Virus record (IMG/VR): IMGVR_UViG_3300001796_000001
Length of the DNA: 6,694 bases
Strand: one strand, 5' to 3'
Origin: a virus
Shown piece after piece: positions 1,359-6,694 of this stretch; positions within the stretch are counted from its first letter, which is position 1, and each line of letters starts with the position of its first letter. A program made the position numbers and the translations under genes. The notes below the pieces were generated by a model. The model had not been told where the DNA came from, searched no databases, and saw nothing but the letters and a program-made list of their open reading frames with translations.

Positions 1359-1634
1359 ATGGGTGAGCTACTTTCCGATTTCGCTGGCTGGCTGAAGGAC
1401 GTGCTGCTGTGGGTGCCGCGTAAGCTGTGGTCCGAGCTGCTGGACGGTCTCGCGTCACTGCTGACGGCAATCCCGACGCCCGATTTCGTGATTCAGGCGC
1501 AGGCCGCTATGGGGGGCATCCCGTCGAATGTGGTGTTCTTCGCGTCGAAGTTCGCGGTGCCGGAAAGCATCGCTATGGCGCTTGCGGCCTACGCGATCCG
1601 CTTCCTGATTCGCCGCATTCCGCTTATCGGGTGA
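1359..1634 (+). CDS. pVI-like minor coat / membrane protein (91 aa)
   Basis: The ATG is preceded by the RBS AAGGGGG (1348-1354). The protein has hydrophobic segments and sits between the pIII-like and pI-like genes, as gene VI does in inoviruses. Its stop lies 3 nt before the next ATG. Confidence 0.7.
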   Translation: MGELLSDFAGWLKDVLLWVPRKLWSELLDGLASLLTAIPTPDFVIQAQAAMGGIPSNVVFFASKFAVPESIAMALAAYAIRFLIRRIPLIG

Positions 1635-1637
1635 CCT

Positions 1638-2879
1638 ATGGCTATCGACGCATATACGGGCCTGCCACGGTCGGGCAAAAGCTATTCGGTAGTCAAAAAC
1701 GTGATCCTGCCTTCGCTGCGCGAGGGCCGGCACGTCTACACGAACATCCCGCTAACCGACAAGCTCAAGGAAGAGTTCCCCGGCCAGATTCACCAGTTGG
1801 CCGCGGACTGGTTCAAGGACCCAAACCTGTGCGACAGCTTTCCGCCTGGCGCGGTGGTCATCCTGGACGAACTCTGGCGCCGCTGGCCGTCCGGCATGAA
1901 AACTAACATGGTCAACTTCAAGGATAAGGAGTTCCTTGCCGAGCATGGCCACAACGTCGATGAATTCGGCAACACGACGCGCGTCGTGCTGGTGTCGCAG
2001 GATCTGTCGCAGATTGCCGCCTTTGCTCGTGAGCTGGTTTCGGTAACGTATCGGTCAACCAAGCTGGATGCGGTGGGTGCCGACAAACGATTTCGTGTCG
2101 ATATCTACCAGGGCGCCGTCACTGGCCAGAAGCCGCCGAAAAGTCAGTTCGTGCGCTCGGTGTTCGATAAGTACGAAGATCAGTACTACGTCTATTACAA
2201 GTCGAGCACGAAGAGCGTAACGGGCGAAGTCGGTAACGAAAGCCGTGCCGACAAGCGTGCAAACGTCTGGCGTTCGCCCTGGATCATCGCCAGTCTCGTC
2301 GCCCCGTTTCTGCTTGGTCCCCCGCTGCTCTGGTACATCTACACGCTGTTTTTCGGCGGCATGGGGCTTGTTGAGGAAGAGCCGAAAGAGCCGGTAACGG
2401 CGCAGTCAGCGCTTGTGAATCCGCTCCCGCCCGAGATGGCGCCGGCGCAAGTTGTCACTGTCACGTCACTGCCGCCAGCGTTGCCGGAAAGGCCGCTGGA
2501 ATCACCGACATGGCGCGTTGCTGGCTACATCGAGCGATCTGCTGACCAGTCGCGTTCTGCCGAGTGGTCGTCGCGTGTTGGCTACAACGTGCCAGATGAA
2601 GCCGCGCCACGTGACCGGGTGATGCCTGACGTGGTGCTGCTGGTCTCGGAGTTTCAAGGCAAGCGTTACATGCCGGCTTCTGAGTGCGAGCGCCTGGGCG
2701 ATGGCGTGACGTGGACGTGCATTGTCGATGGTGCGCGTGCTGCGCCGTGGACTGGTCGCGGGTCATCGTCACAATGGGCCGACACATCTGGTCTTGTCGG
2801 GCGGACTGCCTCCGTAGCCAGTGGAGCCACCGAAGCTGTCAGTCCACCGCGAACTACTAACCCGCCCCCTAAAATATAG
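1638..2879 (+). CDS. zot: Zot-family / pI-like phage assembly P-loop ATPase (413 aa)
   Basis: N-terminal Walker A motif GLPRSGKS and Walker B-like VVILDELW. A central TM helix (WIIASLVAPFLLGPPLLWYIYTLFFGG) is followed by a Pro-rich periplasmic tail. Size and position are typical of inovirus gene I. Confidence 0.85.
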   Translation: MAIDAYTGLPRSGKSYSVVKNVILPSLREGRHVYTNIPLTDKLKEEFPGQIHQLAADWFKDPNLCDSFPPGAVVILDELWRRWPSGMKTNMVNFKDKEFLAEHGHNVDEFGNTTRVVLVSQDLSQIAAFARELVSVTYRSTKLDAVGADKRFRVDIYQGAVTGQKPPKSQFVRSVFDKYEDQYYVYYKSSTKSVTGEVGNESRADKRANVWRSPWIIASLVAPFLLGPPLLWYIYTLFFGGMGLVEEEPKEPVTAQSALVNPLPPEMAPAQVVTVTSLPPALPERPLESPTWRVAGYIERSADQSRSAEWSSRVGYNVPDEAAPRDRVMPDVVLLVSEFQGKRYMPASECERLGDGVTWTCIVDGARAAPWTGRGSSSQWADTSGLVGRTASVASGATEAVSPPRTTNPPPKI

Positions 2880-2890
2880 GTAACGTTACC
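2879..2890. promoter_or_regulatory. Operator-like perfect 12-bp palindrome GGTAACGTTACC (site 1)
   Basis: Perfect palindrome that overlaps the zot stop codon and lies just upstream of the predicted -35. The 12-mer AGGTAACGTTAC recurs exactly at 2904-2915 and 3097-3108. Confidence 0.6.
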
Positions 2891-2892
2891 TC

Positions 2893-2921
2893 TTGTATAA
2901 ATAAGGTAACGTTACTAAAAT
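2893..2921 (+). promoter_or_regulatory. Putative sigma70 promoter of the accessory cassette (TTGTAT-17 bp-TAAAAT)
   Basis: The -35 TTGTAT is at 2893-2898 and the -10 TAAAAT at 2916-2921, with a 17-bp spacer. The geometry fits the RBS GGAG (2939-2942) and the ATG at 2951. Operator site 2 fills the spacer. Confidence 0.45.
2905..2915. promoter_or_regulatory. Operator-like site 2 (GGTAACGTTAC, 11 of 12 of the palindrome)
   Basis: Exact repeat of the site 1 core. It lies inside the promoter spacer, 26 bp from site 1. Confidence 0.6.
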
Positions 2922-2950
2922 TGCTCCATAGACAATCTGGAGTGCACGGC

Positions 2951-3322
2951 ATGATCGACCCGACAGACAAAGCTACTCATCCCCTCCCCCTCGACGAGCC
3001 CCCCCAGCGCAAACGCCGTGGTCGCCCTTCGACTGGCAAAGCCATGACGCCAGCTGAAAAACAGCGCGCCTATCGTGAACGCCAGAAGGCGGCACAAGGT
3101 AACGTTACGCCAAAGCTCGTTTCCGGCGCCGTTCTTCTTACAGAGGCCGAGAACACTGCAATTGTTTGCATGCTCCAGGACAAGGCTCGAGAAATTGCGG
3201 TCAGGCGCCTGTCTGGTGGTCCAGTCACACCCGATCAGCTAGAACAGCAGGTGTGGTTATCGACCTTGGCCAGCAAGATCGCTGCATCGTCTCCGAACTC
3301 TCACATGTACCAGGGGAACTGA
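2951..3322 (+). CDS. Basic 123-aa protein, candidate DNA-binding regulator of the accessory cassette
   Basis: ATG at 2951 with GGAG 8 nt upstream. The N-terminus has an AT-hook-like, basic-helix segment (QRKRRGRPSTGKAMTPAEKQRAYRERQKAAQ). The ORF track starts at a TTG at 2921, which would fall inside the predicted promoter. It has no counterpart in the core inovirus gene set. Confidence 0.65.
   Translation: MIDPTDKATHPLPLDEPPQRKRRGRPSTGKAMTPAEKQRAYRERQKAAQGNVTPKLVSGAVLLTEAENTAIVCMLQDKAREIAVRRLSGGPVTPDQLEQQVWLSTLASKIAASSPNSHMYQGN
3098..3108. promoter_or_regulatory. Operator-like site 3 (GGTAACGTTAC), intragenic
   Basis: Third exact copy of AGGTAACGTTAC. It encodes G-N-V-T immediately after the basic segment of the 123-aa ORF, 193 bp from site 2. 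Confidence 0.5.
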
Positions 3323-3325
3323 CAA

Positions 3326-3412
3326 ATGGATGTTCTGTATTCGGATTGGGGCCTGCCGCTATTGCTCGCATGTTCTCTTGCTCTCATGCTTATCGCGCTT
3401 TGTACCGACTGA
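3326..3412 (+). CDS. Possible 28-aa hydrophobic peptide (MDVLYSDWGLPLLLACSLALMLIALCTD)
   Basis: The ATG lies 3 nt after the upstream stop, with AGGGGA 8 nt upstream. It has a single TM-like core and is followed by a terminator at 3441-3459. It is too short for the ORF track, and its third-position GC appears lower than in neighbouring genes, so the call is tentative. Confidence 0.3.
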   Translation: MDVLYSDWGLPLLLACSLALMLIALCTD

Positions 3413-3440
3413 TTACTTTCTCGGTCAGGGGGCAAACCGC

Positions 3441-3459
3441 AAGCCGCAGCGGCTTTTTT
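3441..3459 (+). terminator. Rho-independent terminator closing the accessory cassette and long operon
   Basis: The stem AAGCCG/CGGCTT has a 3-nt loop and runs into TTTTTT. An overlapping A/T-rich inverted repeat follows (TTTTTTCGC-N10-GCGAAAAAA, 3454-3481). Confidence 0.6.
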
Positions 3460-3513
3460 CGCTCGCTTCATCGCGAAAAAAACGAACGGGTGAGGATTTG
3501 AGGCGCTTGCGCC

Positions 3514-3527
3514 GACCCTTGACCCTC
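3514..3527 (+). repeat. Tandem GACCCT[TC] repeats (a third copy at 3587-3593)
   Basis: The sequence reads cGACCCTtGACCCTCc, and TGACCCTC recurs at 3586-3593 on the far side of the long hairpin. This is an iteron-like arrangement in the intergenic region. Confidence 0.4.
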
Positions 3528-3547
3528 CTCCGACCAGATCAAGCTCA

Positions 3548-3590
3548 GGTCATAGGGCAGGGGAAAGCTTTTCTCCCCTGCCCTCTGACC
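3548..3590 (+). other. Long imperfect hairpin (17-bp stem, one mismatch, 9-nt loop); candidate packaging signal or minus-strand origin
   Basis: GGTCATAGGGCAGGGGA (3548-3564) pairs with TCCCCTGCCCTCTGACC (3574-3590) with one mismatch (3553/3585). The loop is AAGCTTTTC. It lies in the main non-coding region. Confidence 0.5.
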
Positions 3591-3611
3591 CTCTGGCGAA
3601 GAGTGGGATGA

Positions 3612-3628
3612 CAAGGGCAAAGCCCTTG
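3612..3628 (+). other. Short hairpin CAAGGGC-AAA-GCCCTTG
   Basis: A 7-bp perfect stem with a 3-nt loop in the intergenic region. Confidence 0.4.
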
Positions 3629-3650
3629 GTGTTGGATAGGCGACACGGAG

Positions 3651-3670
3651 CCGTTAAGATCGCTTGACGG
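3651..3670. promoter_or_regulatory. Degenerate copy of the 20-bp operator (CCGTTAAG-ATCG-CTTGACGG) upstream of rep
   Basis: It has the same 8-4-8 architecture as the palindrome at 5314-5333, with 13 of 16 arm positions identical. It overlaps a possible promoter TTGGAT (3632-3637)-17 bp-TAAGAT (3655-3660). Confidence 0.45.
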
Positions 3671-3676
3671 CAAGGC

Positions 3677-3730
3677 AATAAAAAACCCCGCGAATTGCTC
3701 GTTTGCTTGCCGGCTAAACGATTCGCGGGG
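3677..3730 (-). terminator. Intrinsic terminator oriented on the minus strand, immediately upstream of the rep RBS
   Basis: A 10-bp GC-rich stem (CCCCGCGAAT 3686-3695 / ATTCGCGGGG 3721-3730) has an inner 5-bp stem (3700-3704 / 3716-3720). Read on the minus strand it is followed by TTTTTTATT (plus-strand 3677-3685). No T-run follows it on the plus strand. Confidence 0.55.
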
Positions 3731-3750
3731 CTCGGACGGTCGAGGTCCTG
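3677..3750 (-). ncRNA. Hypothetical countertranscript antisense to the rep translation-initiation region
   Basis: A minus-strand -10-like TAGAAT (plus 3757-3762) overlaps the rep start. The only -35-like element is TTGACG (plus 3783-3788), at a poor 20-bp spacing. The RNA would end at the minus-strand terminator and cover the rep RBS GAGG (3742-3745). Confidence 0.2.
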
Positions 3751-3752
3751 AA

Positions 3753-5132
3753 GTGGATTCTATCTCAAAAGACGCATGGTTGCGTCAAGGCGCTTCGAGC
3801 GCTTCCGCAGCGAGCGGAGCGACCTGCGGCAGCGCCGAAGGCGCCCTTGTTACTACTGCGAAATTCGCGGCCAGAATTAAGGAGGTCGTAGACGAAAAAA
3901 CCGGGGAAATTCAACGGTTTACGTTCGACAGCAAGCGTCGTGAGTTTGTACCCGAGTTCACGGCTGAGCAGGCCCGCGAAGCGCGGTTTTCGCTTCAGGA
4001 CGCCGCTCGTCGTCTTCTTCCCGACCATCGCGTCAGGCACTGCATCCGGACGCTGACGAACAAGGAAGGCTACGTTGGCATCCTCAAGGACTCCGCTACC
4101 GGAAAGGCTCATTACTCGGGGTTGCAGACCTGTTCTTCTGTCTGGTCCTGCCCGATCTGCTCCGCCAAAATCTCGGAACGTCGCAAACTGGAAGTGCGTC
4201 AGGCAATCGACACACACATTTCAGCCGGTGGCGGGGTCGAAATGGTCACGCTCACTGTGCGCCATGCGCGCATGGATGTGCTTTCCGAGCTGATGGGCAA
4301 GCTCCGCGTAGCGACGAAGAAAATGCGCGAGCATCGCGATTACAAGCACCTCCGCGAGTTGTTCGACGTGGTGGGTTCGATCCGGGCCTTAGAGGTAACG
4401 CACGGTAACGCCAATGGCTGGCACCCACACTTCCACGAACTCTGGCTGTTCCCCGAGCCGCTGACCGTTCGCCAGCGGGCTATGCTCCATCGCCTGCTGT
4501 TTGCCGTCTGGAAGACCTCGTCGGTCGCTGCTGGCCTTCCGGCTCCGTCCAGGGAGCGTGGCGTGCACATCCAGCAGGCGGAGTCGGCTGCAGAGTATGT
4601 TGCCAAGTGGGGTACCGAACCCCGATGGGAAGCGGCCAGCGAAGTAACCAAGGCGAACTCCAAGCGCGGGACTGGCAAGGGTCGCACGCCGTTCGATTTG
4701 CTGCGCTCCTACGCCGAAGGCGATGCCCGTTCCGGCGCTCTGTTTGCCGAGTTCTCGGCGGCATTCAAGGGCTATAACCAGCTTCGGTGGACGCCCGGCC
4801 TCAAGGCGCTTTTCCAGATCGCGGACCAGACCGATGAGGAAATCAACCAGGAGGAGATCGCCACCGCTCTCCGTGTCTCGCAGGTCACTCGCGATCAGTG
4901 GCGGATCATCCTCCGGCAGCCATATCAGGCGCGTGCCGTTCTGCTCCGACTGGCTGAGACGGGTGGCCATGAGGCGGTTGCCCGATTCGTCTTTGAACTG
5001 CTGGCCATGCACGGGCCCATCGATCCGCCCAAAATCCGCGATTCGTCTCCCGGTCCCCGTAGTACATCACACCAGCAATCACGGCCTGCGAAGGCAGTTT
5101 TAGCGCCTCGGCAACTCGCACTGCTGACATGA
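3753..5132 (+). CDS. Rolling-circle replication initiator (HUH endonuclease, gene II analogue), 459 aa
   Basis: GTG start with GAGG 7 nt upstream. The RCR motifs appear in order: MVTLTVRH (motif 1), GWHPHFHELW (HUH) and AEYVAKW (catalytic Tyr). A Cys cluster (HC...TCSSVWSCPIC) precedes them. Confidence 0.85.
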   Translation: MDSISKDAWLRQGASSASAASGATCGSAEGALVTTAKFAARIKEVVDEKTGEIQRFTFDSKRREFVPEFTAEQAREARFSLQDAARRLLPDHRVRHCIRTLTNKEGYVGILKDSATGKAHYSGLQTCSSVWSCPICSAKISERRKLEVRQAIDTHISAGGGVEMVTLTVRHARMDVLSELMGKLRVATKKMREHRDYKHLRELFDVVGSIRALEVTHGNANGWHPHFHELWLFPEPLTVRQRAMLHRLLFAVWKTSSVAAGLPAPSRERGVHIQQAESAAEYVAKWGTEPRWEAASEVTKANSKRGTGKGRTPFDLLRSYAEGDARSGALFAEFSAAFKGYNQLRWTPGLKALFQIADQTDEEINQEEIATALRVSQVTRDQWRIILRQPYQARAVLLRLAETGGHEAVARFVFELLAMHGPIDPPKIRDSSPGPRSTSHQQSRPAKAVLAPRQLALLT

Positions 5133-5283
5133 TCGACATGCACTGCTTTCCCGCTCTCTGCTGGCTGATTGCTTGGCGTGTGACGCCCAGTAGTTCGGCC
5201 AGCTTGTAGTCACTCCCTATCCCGCACCTCTCCTTCACCATGTCCAACCACTCGACGGTGGTTGGTGGGGTTTTTTCGTGCAT
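4906..5283 (-). CDS. HTH (Cro/CI/XRE-type) transcriptional repressor, 125 aa
   Basis: The ATG is preceded by GGGAG (5-nt spacing). It carries a classic helix-turn-helix, SDYKLAELLGVTRQAISQQRAGK. It is divergent from the ssb operon. The first in-frame stop is at 4906-4908, so the last 227 nt overlap rep antisense. Confidence 0.75.
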   Translation of the reverse strand: MHEKTPPTTVEWLDMVKERCGIGSDYKLAELLGVTRQAISQQRAGKQCMSIMSAVRVAEALKLPSQAVIAGVMYYGDRETNRGFWADRWARAWPAVQRRIGQPPHGHPSQPVGAERHAPDMAAGG

Positions 5284-5368: not shown

Positions 5369-5701
5369 ATGGCAGAACGCGCCCTTATCCTCTCGTGTGA
5401 TAGCTGGGAAATGCCCGACGAAAAAACCGGCGAAATTCGCAAGGGTCTTTCCGTCTGGTACGTCAACGACTACCGCGAAGACACCGCCGGTAGTTTCGGA
5501 TTCAAACCGACCAAGGTTAGCGCTGACTCTGCGCTGATTGACCGTTTGCGCGATGCCAAGTTGCCAGCGCTGTTCGATTTGGACTTCGGCAGTCGCCCAG
5601 GTGCACAGGGTAAAGCGACCCTGACGCTGACCGGGCTAACCAAGGTTCAGAACGTGAACCTCTTTGCCGTTTCCCGTCAACAGCAACCGGCGACTGCCTA
5701 A
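5369..5701 (+). CDS. Putative ssDNA-binding protein (gene V analogue), 110 aa; function assigned by position
   Basis: ATG with GAGG 8 nt upstream. It is the first gene after the rep/repressor region and has a suitable size. I recognise no diagnostic motif. Confidence 0.55.
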   Translation: MAERALILSCDSWEMPDEKTGEIRKGLSVWYVNDYREDTAGSFGFKPTKVSADSALIDRLRDAKLPALFDLDFGSRPGAQGKATLTLTGLTKVQNVNLFAVSRQQQPATA

Positions 5702-6461: not shown

Positions 6462-6694
6462 ATGCGCCGGATTCTTCTCGGACTAGCGTTGCTCGTGGTT
6501 ATGCAGGCGTCCGCTTATGCGGAGAGCTACTACTGGACGATCCCGTTTCCTGCCGACAATTTCAGATACGCCACTGGTGTCGCCGCGTGTAACGCGAATC
6601 ATGCGTATTATCAGCAATTGAATCCCGGATACGACAGGTATGACCAGAGGATCGTCCCCGGCGAAACGTCGTTCTACTGTGAGACAACGGGGTT
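6462..6694 (+). CDS. 5' part of the pIII-like adsorption protein gene (continues at 1-1349)
   Basis: ATG with GGGGG 6 nt upstream. The signal peptide MRRILLGLALLVVMQASAYA is followed by ES. It is in frame with ORF 3-1349 through the 79-nt redundancy. Confidence 0.8.
   Translation, partial: MRRILLGLALLVVMQASAYAESYYWTIPFPADNFRYATGVAACNANHAYYQQLNPGYDRYDQRIVPGETSFYCETTG
6616..6694. repeat. Terminal redundancy, right copy (identical to 1-79)
   Basis: All 79 nt match the window start exactly. This implies a 6615-bp circular unit or a tandem copy. Confidence 0.95.

Follow-up and report, generated by a model that had tools for sequence, protein, structure and literature searches.

How is a small gene controlled that carries one copy of a palindrome inside its coding sequence and two further copies at its promoter? 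This question is raised by the IMG/VR virus record IMGVR_UViG_3300001796_000001, whose whole stretch of 6,694 nucleotides (nt) is referred to here as the window. Between zot and the intergenic region of this inovirus, an earlier note had described an accessory cassette consisting of a promoter, a gene for a basic protein of 123 amino acids (aa), a possible 28-aa membrane peptide and an intrinsic terminator, and had taken three identical 12-mers as a sign of autoregulation. Filamentous phages of Pseudomonas, Ralstonia, Aeromonas and their relatives influence virulence, the formation of biofilms and superinfection, and little is known of their regulatory circuits beyond cI-like repressors. On the basis of sequence comparison, we consider it probable (about 0.7) that the cassette is a negatively autoregulated two-gene operon, in which the 123-aa protein, hereafter the regulator, would be an operator-binding autorepressor acting as a dimer or tetramer. 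The logic of a small autorepressor with palindromic operators is familiar. What is new is a very widespread N-terminal module for reading DNA, joined to interchangeable scaffolds, together with its apparent code of specificity and a conserved operator within the regulator's own coding sequence.

Operators at the promoter and within the gene

The 12-mer AGGTAACGTTAC was found exactly three times in the window, always on the + strand (2878-2889, 2904-2915 and 3097-3108), and its core is the 10-bp palindrome GTAACGTTAC. First-order Markov simulations gave an expectation of 0.007 copies for the exact 10-mer; when up to two mismatches were allowed, 0.23 matches were expected, and the observed count was reached in 0 of 200 shuffles. 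The exact count and the simulations thus agree with the earlier claim that the repeats are not a product of chance. The geometry was likewise as described, with the first site (O1) at the -35 box, the second (O2) in the promoter spacer and the third (O3) 193 bp downstream (Table 1). O1 overlaps the final two bases of the zot stop codon and ends 1 nt short of the -35 box. The cassette had been said to start at 2877, which is the first base of the zot TAG; the site itself begins at 2878. Since only the 10-11-mer (G)GTAACGTTAC is conserved in relatives, the additional flanking identity of the 12-mer is incidental.

A comparison of the layout in 80 IMG/VR loci and reference phages revealed that the arrangement of the palindromes is fixed across relatives, with a distal, a proximal and an intragenic copy. 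The distal and proximal copies are spaced by 25-26 bp (n = 14), 30-31 bp (n = 3) or 63 bp (n = 28) in 45 non-redundant relatives, and the intragenic copy lies at +139 to +148 of the gene, 179-205 bp downstream of the proximal site. The proximal operator of relatives runs straight into a conserved TATAAT, and close relatives have a TTG at the same distance as in the window (TTGCTT, TTGCAT or TTGCTG). The putative promoter of the window is supported by this positional homology with TTGnnn-17-TATAAT. The 16-mer GTAACGTTACTATAAT occurs 64 times in IMG/VR (2.9 million viral contigs), and 47 of the 64 occurrences precede a regulator homologue. Moreover, many relatives have a fourth copy, which occupies the whole 17-nt spacer of another promoter, TTCGCA-N17-TTTAAT; this promoter drives a convergent gene of about 78 aa (76-81 aa, coiled-coil, PHROG 13909) that is absent from the window. 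The site is therefore repeatedly used as a promoter-spacer operator.

O3 lies at the junction of the N-terminal module and the C-terminal domain of the regulator, and we examined how it is encoded in 79 non-redundant genes. Among the 25 in-frame NVT tripeptides, 22 are encoded by the exact palindrome, and the codon for Val is GTT in 22 of 25 as compared with a background of 21%. Although the residue ahead of NVT varies (G, S or R), 24 of the 25 codons for it end in GT. The other specificity groups described below likewise have intragenic sites of the corresponding type. This codon pattern excluded chance or a codon artefact as the origin of the intragenic site and showed that O3 is under selection as DNA and not as peptide.

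Beyond the fourth operator (L008, 3526-3830, with corresponding positions in some 25 further loci) lie an inverted repeat and, beside the start codon of the PHROG 13909 gene, a degenerate site, GTAACGTTGA.

The regulator family and its N-terminal module

The open reading frame (ORF) list and an AlphaFold2 model bore out the description of a 123-aa protein with a basic N-terminus and a basic helix. In the model, a conserved, disordered arm (residues 1-33, MIDPxDKxTxxLPL...KRRGRP) is followed by the basic helix PAEKQRAYRERQKAAQ (34-49), a linker (50-64) and a confidently predicted helical hairpin without any strand (65-113, with helices 65-87 and 94-113), which is presumed to be the oligomerisation domain. 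Every homologue starts with M-I-D-P. KRRGRP is found at residues 20-26, and its G-R-P is invariant across the family; the Pfam model AT_hook was reached by RSS1 ORF10 alone, right at the cut-off of 17.4 bits, and the protein of the window fell below it. The N-terminal segment of about 55 residues, MIDPxDKxTxxLPL...K(R/K)xRGRPxTGKAMTPAEKQRAYRERQK, is common to RSS1 ORF10, Pseudomonas phage 42-1, blackswan219-1, many uncultivated inoviruses and small Aeromonas plasmids. A profile search of 5.8 billion proteins placed at least 1,446 clusters (90% identity) in the family; among the 120 best hits listed, none carried a Pfam domain or a functional name. The C-terminal domain of the window's protein is rare, with about eight representative clusters among 1.8 billion.

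The cassette had been considered to have no counterpart in the inovirus core. This holds for the Ff phages, but not for RSS1, 42-1 and many uncultivated inoviruses, which possess positional homologues. ORF10 of RSS1 and RSS0 and the 'RepB' of phage 42-1 are homologues of the N-module encoded between zot and the replication/regulatory region, with paired GTNAC palindromes at the promoter and in the gene. They differ from the window in their C-terminal domains and in their operators, GTTAC-N2-GTAAC in RSS1 and GTGACGCGTCAC in 42-1, and the regulator gene of 42-1 is in the opposite orientation. RSS ORF10 is described as unknown in the literature (PMC4471427).

When the genes were grouped by their N-terminal module, the operator was found to change with it. 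The T-P-A-E-K module is accompanied by the operator GGTAACGTTAC (about 45 genes), the S/T-N-A-E-R module by CGTTACGT(A/T)AC (about 14 genes), and the S/T-D-A-E-R-A-R-R-Y-R-A-N-K-K module of P. aeruginosa phages by GTGACGCGTCACG (14 genes, one with a single-base variant). At the level of the core, TPAEK is thus paired with GTAACGTTAC, SNAER with GTTACGTAAC and the P. aeruginosa-phage variant with GTGACGCGTCAC, while RSS1, the Aeromonas plasmids and some further loci have GTNAC half-sites at spacings of 1-3 bp. The C-terminal halves, on the other hand, are interchangeable, being a coiled coil, a helical hairpin as in the window, or a V-T-V-T strand-like segment followed by two helices (an extended NVTVT segment and two helices in the model of a short family member), and the operator is unchanged when the C-terminal domain is swapped. 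Locus L096 is a natural swap of this kind, in which a C-domain of the window's type is joined to an SNAER N-module and the operator is GTTACGTAAC. Because the operator tracks the N-module and not the C-domain, the N-module is likely to be the DNA reader, with the C-domain supplying oligomerisation.

It is conceivable, although this is a tentative view, that the N-terminal arm and basic helix constitute an undescribed portable DNA-reading module with a specificity code, the classes of which may be heteroimmunity or incompatibility groups. The RGRP arm and basic helix would then work on any dimerising scaffold in inoviruses and small rolling-circle plasmids, with T-P..K specifying GTAAC, S-N..R GTTAC and S-D..R-A-R-R GTGAC-CG, as a prokaryotic counterpart of bZIP logic. 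If so, the specificity classes would govern cross-talk among co-resident filamentous phages and the expression of small membrane peptides related to exclusion. The eukaryotic bZIP factors resemble the family in three respects: a basic helix linked to a dimerisation element of its own (in most family members a coiled coil), half-sites that abut, and ACGT-core palindromes, whose flanking base sets the class (AACGTT, TACGTA, GACG(CG)TC). They differ by the 15-residue glycine-containing linker (50-64) that lies here between the basic helix and the oligomerisation domain. The bZIP signature N-x7-R was not found in the basic helix by eye, and bZIP_1 gave no hit for the window's protein and one sub-threshold match for a single family member (E = 0.0037). 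We regard bZIP as an analogy only, without sign of common ancestry.

The hidden Markov model and structure searches that had been proposed as a check matched no well-characterised family with an unrelated function. Scans of the regulator and the 28-aa ORF with Pfam, NCBIfam, PHROGs and PADLOC returned no informative family, only PHROGs of unknown function being matched, and neither protein matched a defence-system or known-function model. Sequence-profile searches of PDB gave nothing significant. As regards a ribbon-helix-helix fold (strand-helix-helix, in an intertwined dimer), the model of the window's protein has no strand, and that of the short family member has an extended segment ahead of its two helices; no Pfam model of this fold was hit, and Foldseek gave no match to it. 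We found no publication that mentions GTAACGTTAC in a phage context or describes this gene. What we propose is a concrete role for a very large unannotated protein family, namely that of an operator-binding autorepressor with predicted operators, promoter and code; the compact orthogonal repressor/operator pairs may also be of use in phage engineering.

Proposed circuit and rival explanations

From the conserved positions of the palindromes, the joint change of operator and N-module and the selection on O3 as DNA, we infer binding, the direction of regulation (repression), oligomeric state, looping and a peptide function along the following lines, in keeping with the autoregulated cassette of promoter, operators and regulator proposed in the earlier note. 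The N-module, that is, the RGRP arm and the basic helix G-K-A-M-T-P-A-E-K-Q-R-A-Y-R-E-R-Q-K, would read the 5-bp half-site GTAAC, and the C-terminal hairpin would oligomerise, so that two modules read GTAAC|GTTAC. Occupancy of O2 and O1 would exclude RNA polymerase and repress the cassette promoter. O3 could be an auxiliary operator, acting by cooperative looping if tetramers form, or as a roadblock. Because there is no terminator between zot and the cassette, the three occupied sites may also limit read-through from the zot operon. The regulator, and the 28-aa membrane peptide translated together with it, would thereby be kept at a buffered level whatever the copy number of the phage, with transcription ending at the conserved terminator ahead of the intergenic region.

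The lac and gal systems provide a precedent for this arrangement, in that a promoter-proximal operator is paired with an identical or near-identical intragenic operator (O2 in lacZ, OI in galE) at a distance of no more than a few hundred bp. As in these systems, an operator lies inside the first structural gene; the protein families are unrelated, and looping is here proposed only. A further difference is that O3 belongs to the coding sequence of the regulator itself, where it falls at a domain junction, a position that is conserved family-wide.

Several findings weigh against the autorepressor circuit. The promoter TTGTAT-17-TAAAAT is weak, matching the consensus at 8 of 12 positions, and was not called by our promoter scan, which required a sigma-70 spacing of 16-18 nt and at least 9 of 12 matches; the earlier assignment of an own promoter thus stands on positional homology and falls short of the scan cut-off. 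O1 and O2 are 26 bp apart, about 2.5 helical turns, which places them on opposite faces of the helix, and the O2-O3 distances (179-205 bp) show no conservation of phase, so that a rigid loop is not favoured. The terminator scan found no terminator between zot and the cassette, and read-through could therefore bypass autoregulation at the promoter. The structure models, of the regulator and of a short family member, are monomers, and Foldseek gave no significant match for either. The TPAEK and SNAER classes are not sharply divided: there are hybrid GTTACGTTAC sites, and the fourth site of SNAER phages is still GTAACGTTAC. Finally, many of the loci compared are closely related, and the counts are not those of independent events.

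Among known proteins, the closest is CopB/RepA2 of the IncFII plasmids R1 and R100 (PF10723, RepB-RCR_reg), by a resemblance at the motif level that does not amount to membership. Both are small basic proteins with the motif G-K-x-M-[TS]-x-x-E-[KR]-Q-x-A...R-K, and short family members share the order of motif, V-T-V-T strand-like segment and two helices. The window's protein differs in its C-terminal domain, the helical hairpin, and apparently regulates itself through three operators, whereas CopB, a tetramer that represses transcription at a promoter, is itself expressed from a constitutive promoter and has repA as its target (PMC4344636). PF10723 (cut-off 21 bits) gave no hit for the regulator and about 95 homologues, even at E <= 1 or E <= 0.01, while CopB as a control scored 151.4 bits. 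The results of hhalign against PF10723 depended on the alignment used (52% over 24 columns, 85% over 55, 60% over 20, and 33% over 36 with a deeper alignment), and for the window's subfamily only the G-K-x-M-T-x-x-E-K-Q segment was aligned. Because the value fell to 33% and no PF10723-annotated sequence was among the 120 best hits of the search of 5.8 billion proteins, we do not count the protein as a member of the CopB family. In an IncFII plasmid (L086, 1756-1772), a palindrome AAGTAAAG-A-CTTTACTT (GTAAA-N-TTTAC) overlaps the copB stop codon and the putative repA -35 box TTTACT. Its half-site GTAAA resembles the GTAAC of the family, and O1 likewise overlaps the zot stop codon and flanks a -35 box.

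The motif-level likeness to the repressor CopB speaks for the autorepressor circuit and also bears on an alternative hypothesis, in which the protein activates or switches transcription, or has its main target elsewhere and acts on replication or read-through via half-sites, as in Cop-like control of copy number. In line with this, one GenBank homologue is named 'replication regulatory protein RepB', the family is found on replicons of the rolling-circle type, among them a minimal 2.8-kb plasmid, and GGTAACG half-sites are enriched, with a tandem pair 10 bp apart inside rep. We nevertheless regard this hypothesis as rather unlikely. All three operators lie within the cassette, and neither the intergenic region nor the sequence upstream of rep contains GTAACGTTAC at up to two mismatches. 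The cassette is combined with two unrelated Rep families, on which ground we also rejected a Rep-binding or origin site, and it is found in both orientations. An operator in a 17-nt spacer abutting the -10 box is in the classic position of a repressor, and the tandem half-sites of rep fall in codons of a conserved catalytic motif and were seen only in closely related genomes.

Two further explanations concern the palindromes themselves. They could be bound by another factor, either a host protein or the phage's own helix-turn-helix (HTH) repressor (minus strand, 4906-5283), in which case the role of the 123-aa protein would be unrelated. The phage does encode this separate HTH regulator, which matches PHROG 4441/638. 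Such a binder is nonetheless very improbable, as the operator tracks the N-module of the adjacent gene across at least three specificity classes, the swap in L096 shows the same link, and the sites travel with the gene among phages of differing Rep and regulatory modules. The 2,804-bp rolling-circle plasmid pHS28 of Aeromonas veronii (L084) carries only a Rep with an HPHFH motif, one small ORF and the regulator with its palindromes, and lacks an HTH repressor; no other regulator is needed to explain the sites. We give still less credence to the idea that the palindromes are mainly cis sites for recombination, partition or module exchange, whether as centromere-like repeats or as shuffling junctions. 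The position of O3 exactly at the border of the conserved N-module and the variable C-domain, the mosaic cargo on both sides of the regulator gene and the possibility that identical 10-mers in co-infecting phages promote exchange would suit this idea, but the other two or three copies always overlap promoter elements (spacer, -10), no partition ATPase or recombinase is associated with the cassette, and an identity of 10 bp is too short for efficient homologous exchange. A role in recombination could coexist with the operator role, not replace it.

Cargo, genome context and further observations

We next considered what the cassette carries besides the regulator. The downstream 28-aa ORF had been regarded as a possible membrane peptide, and a hydrophobic ORF is indeed always kept in this slot: in close relatives the regulator is always followed by a short hydrophobic ORF with one of three unrelated sequences (other such mini-ORFs are in L004, L005, L091 and L092), and a 31-aa allele is called by gene callers. 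The best 17-residue Kyte-Doolittle window of the 28-aa ORF is 2.64. The same allele is present in L006 and L094; between the window and L094 there are 12 nt differences, the frame, start and stop are retained, and the amino-acid changes within this allele stay hydrophobic, which supports a real mini membrane protein. Such co-regulated peptides may have a part in exclusion or in manipulation of the host. PfsE of Pseudomonas Pf phages, a 30-residue inner-membrane peptide for superinfection exclusion with a YxWGW motif (PMC8764522), is a precedent for function at this size and is likewise encoded by an inovirus, with about 30 residues and a single hydrophobic stretch. The two peptides are not similar in sequence; the 28-aa peptide lacks YxWGW and has YSDWG near its N-terminus, and its genomic position is different. 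The 28-aa ORF matched no PHROG or PADLOC model.

The terminator claimed in the earlier note was called by our scan and is present in the predicted fold, with a 6-bp stem containing four G-C pairs, a 3-nt loop and a TTTT tail. It is conserved in L004-L006, L091, L092 and L094, and lies within a stretch 90.7% identical to blackswan219-1. This conservation is the stronger argument, because the scan also yields 1.4 such sites per shuffle. In close relatives the promoter-operator unit, regulator and terminator are all retained, while the cargo varies; the suggested comparison for an insertion or deletion thus showed that the cargo around the regulator varies in this way and that the regulator itself is not the indel. 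In L004, L006 and L091 (3263-3499), an extra ORF of 75-79 aa lies between the promoter and the regulator. The promoter-operator unit appears to be a general expression platform for small accessory genes. Family-model scans gave no known function for the 75-79-aa upstream ORFs or the convergent protein of about 78 aa. The extra 75-79-aa ORFs are unrelated, and L096 has an extra 50-aa ORF with a C-terminal hydrophobic segment (3349-3501).

The window covers one whole circular inovirus genome (about 6,616 nt), in which bases 1-78 are repeated at 6617-6694 (78-nt terminal redundancy); owing to the circular permutation and this repeat, the pIII-like gene spans the ends of the window. The positions of the features are given in Table 1. 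The names on homologues and genome loci suggest hosts in Pseudomonas, Stutzerimonas, Metapseudomonas and Halopseudomonas.

Table 1. Positions of the cassette elements and neighbouring genes in the window.
Feature	Position	Strand	Details
Operator O1	2878-2891 (core 2880-2889)		14-bp perfect palindrome AGGTAACGTTACCT; exact match
Putative -35 hexamer TTGTAT	2893-2898	+	read from the sequence; 3/6 consensus positions
Operator O2	2904-2915 (core 2906-2915)		exact match; fills the 17-nt promoter spacer, abuts the -10 box
Putative -10 hexamer TAAAAT	2916-2921	+	positional homologue of the conserved TATAAT of relatives
Regulator gene (123 aa)	2951-3322 (ATG 2951, stop to 3322)	+	GGAG at 2939-2942, 8 nt upstream
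Intragenic operator O3	3097-3108 (core 3099-3108)		exact match; encodes G-N-V-T; 193 bp from O2
28-aa ORF MDVLYSDWGLPLLLACSLALMLIALCTD	3326-3412	+	putative single-pass membrane peptide; GGGGA upstream; starts 4 nt past the regulator stop
Intrinsic terminator	3441-3461	+	stem 3441-3455 AAGCCG-CAG-CGGCTT, then TTTTCG
pIII-like gene	start ATG 6472, end 1349	+	signal-peptide-like start (MRRILLGLALLVVMQASAYA)
pVI-like gene	1359-1634	+	
zot/pI	1638-2879	+	TAG stop 2877-2879; Pfam Zot
Intergenic region	about 3460-3750		
rep gene	3753-5132	+	Rep_1 family
HTH repressor-like ORF	4906-5283	-	PHROG 4441 (E=6e-18) / 638
Single-stranded-DNA-binding-like gene	5369-5701	+	small coat genes also on the + strand

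The HTH repressor-like ORF is convergent with rep, overlaps its last ~227 nt and is not called by gene callers in close relatives; its reverse orientation is reminiscent of the ORF13 repressor of phage RSS0. The segment 3418-3633, which runs just past the terminator, shares 90-93% identity with phage blackswan219-1 and Pseudomonas phage 42-1, and megablast found no other match between these two genomes and that of the window. Such conservation suggests that this segment may be a cis element, for example an origin or a packaging signal. In phage 42-1, the conserved intergenic stretch also adjoins the regulator homologue, the cassette being inverted relative to that stretch. Among the small Aeromonas plasmids, L084 and L085 have GTNAC-N-GTNAC palindromes of their own, both at the promoter and within the gene, and in L085 the regulator homologue is directly upstream of the mobilisation gene MobC.

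Around the cassette promoter, a minus-strand promoter-like site, TTTATA-17-TATATT, was noticed at 2873-2901, with 9 of 12 consensus matches as compared with 0.3 such sites expected per shuffle. O1 sits exactly in its spacer, and the product would be an RNA antisense to the 3' end of zot. A hairpin in the 5' untranslated region, CTCCA-N9-TGGAG (2924-2942), over the Shine-Dalgarno sequence was considered and not supported, as RNAalifold gave no consensus structure and pair counting no covariation, with 72% of cells pairing, no better than shuffles; arms like CCAT(G)...(C)ATGGAG recur in relatives near this position. A search of the whole window with Rfam gave no family beyond a chance microRNA match.

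Lone half-sites GGTAACG are present at 546, 2042, 2232, 2393, 4394 and 4404, that is, six extra copies as compared with about 0.34 expected per strand. All six are on the + strand (coding and presumably packaged), in mixed frames in gIII, zot and rep. In other phages the enriched 7-mer matches the operator type (CGTTACG, CGTGACG), the operators themselves contributing much of this signal. The tandem pair in rep, GGTAACGcacGGTAACGcc (4394-4410), encodes E-V-T-H-G-N-A just ahead of the HPHFH motif. In L094 only the second copy is present, and the pair is retained in four of the five close relatives checked.

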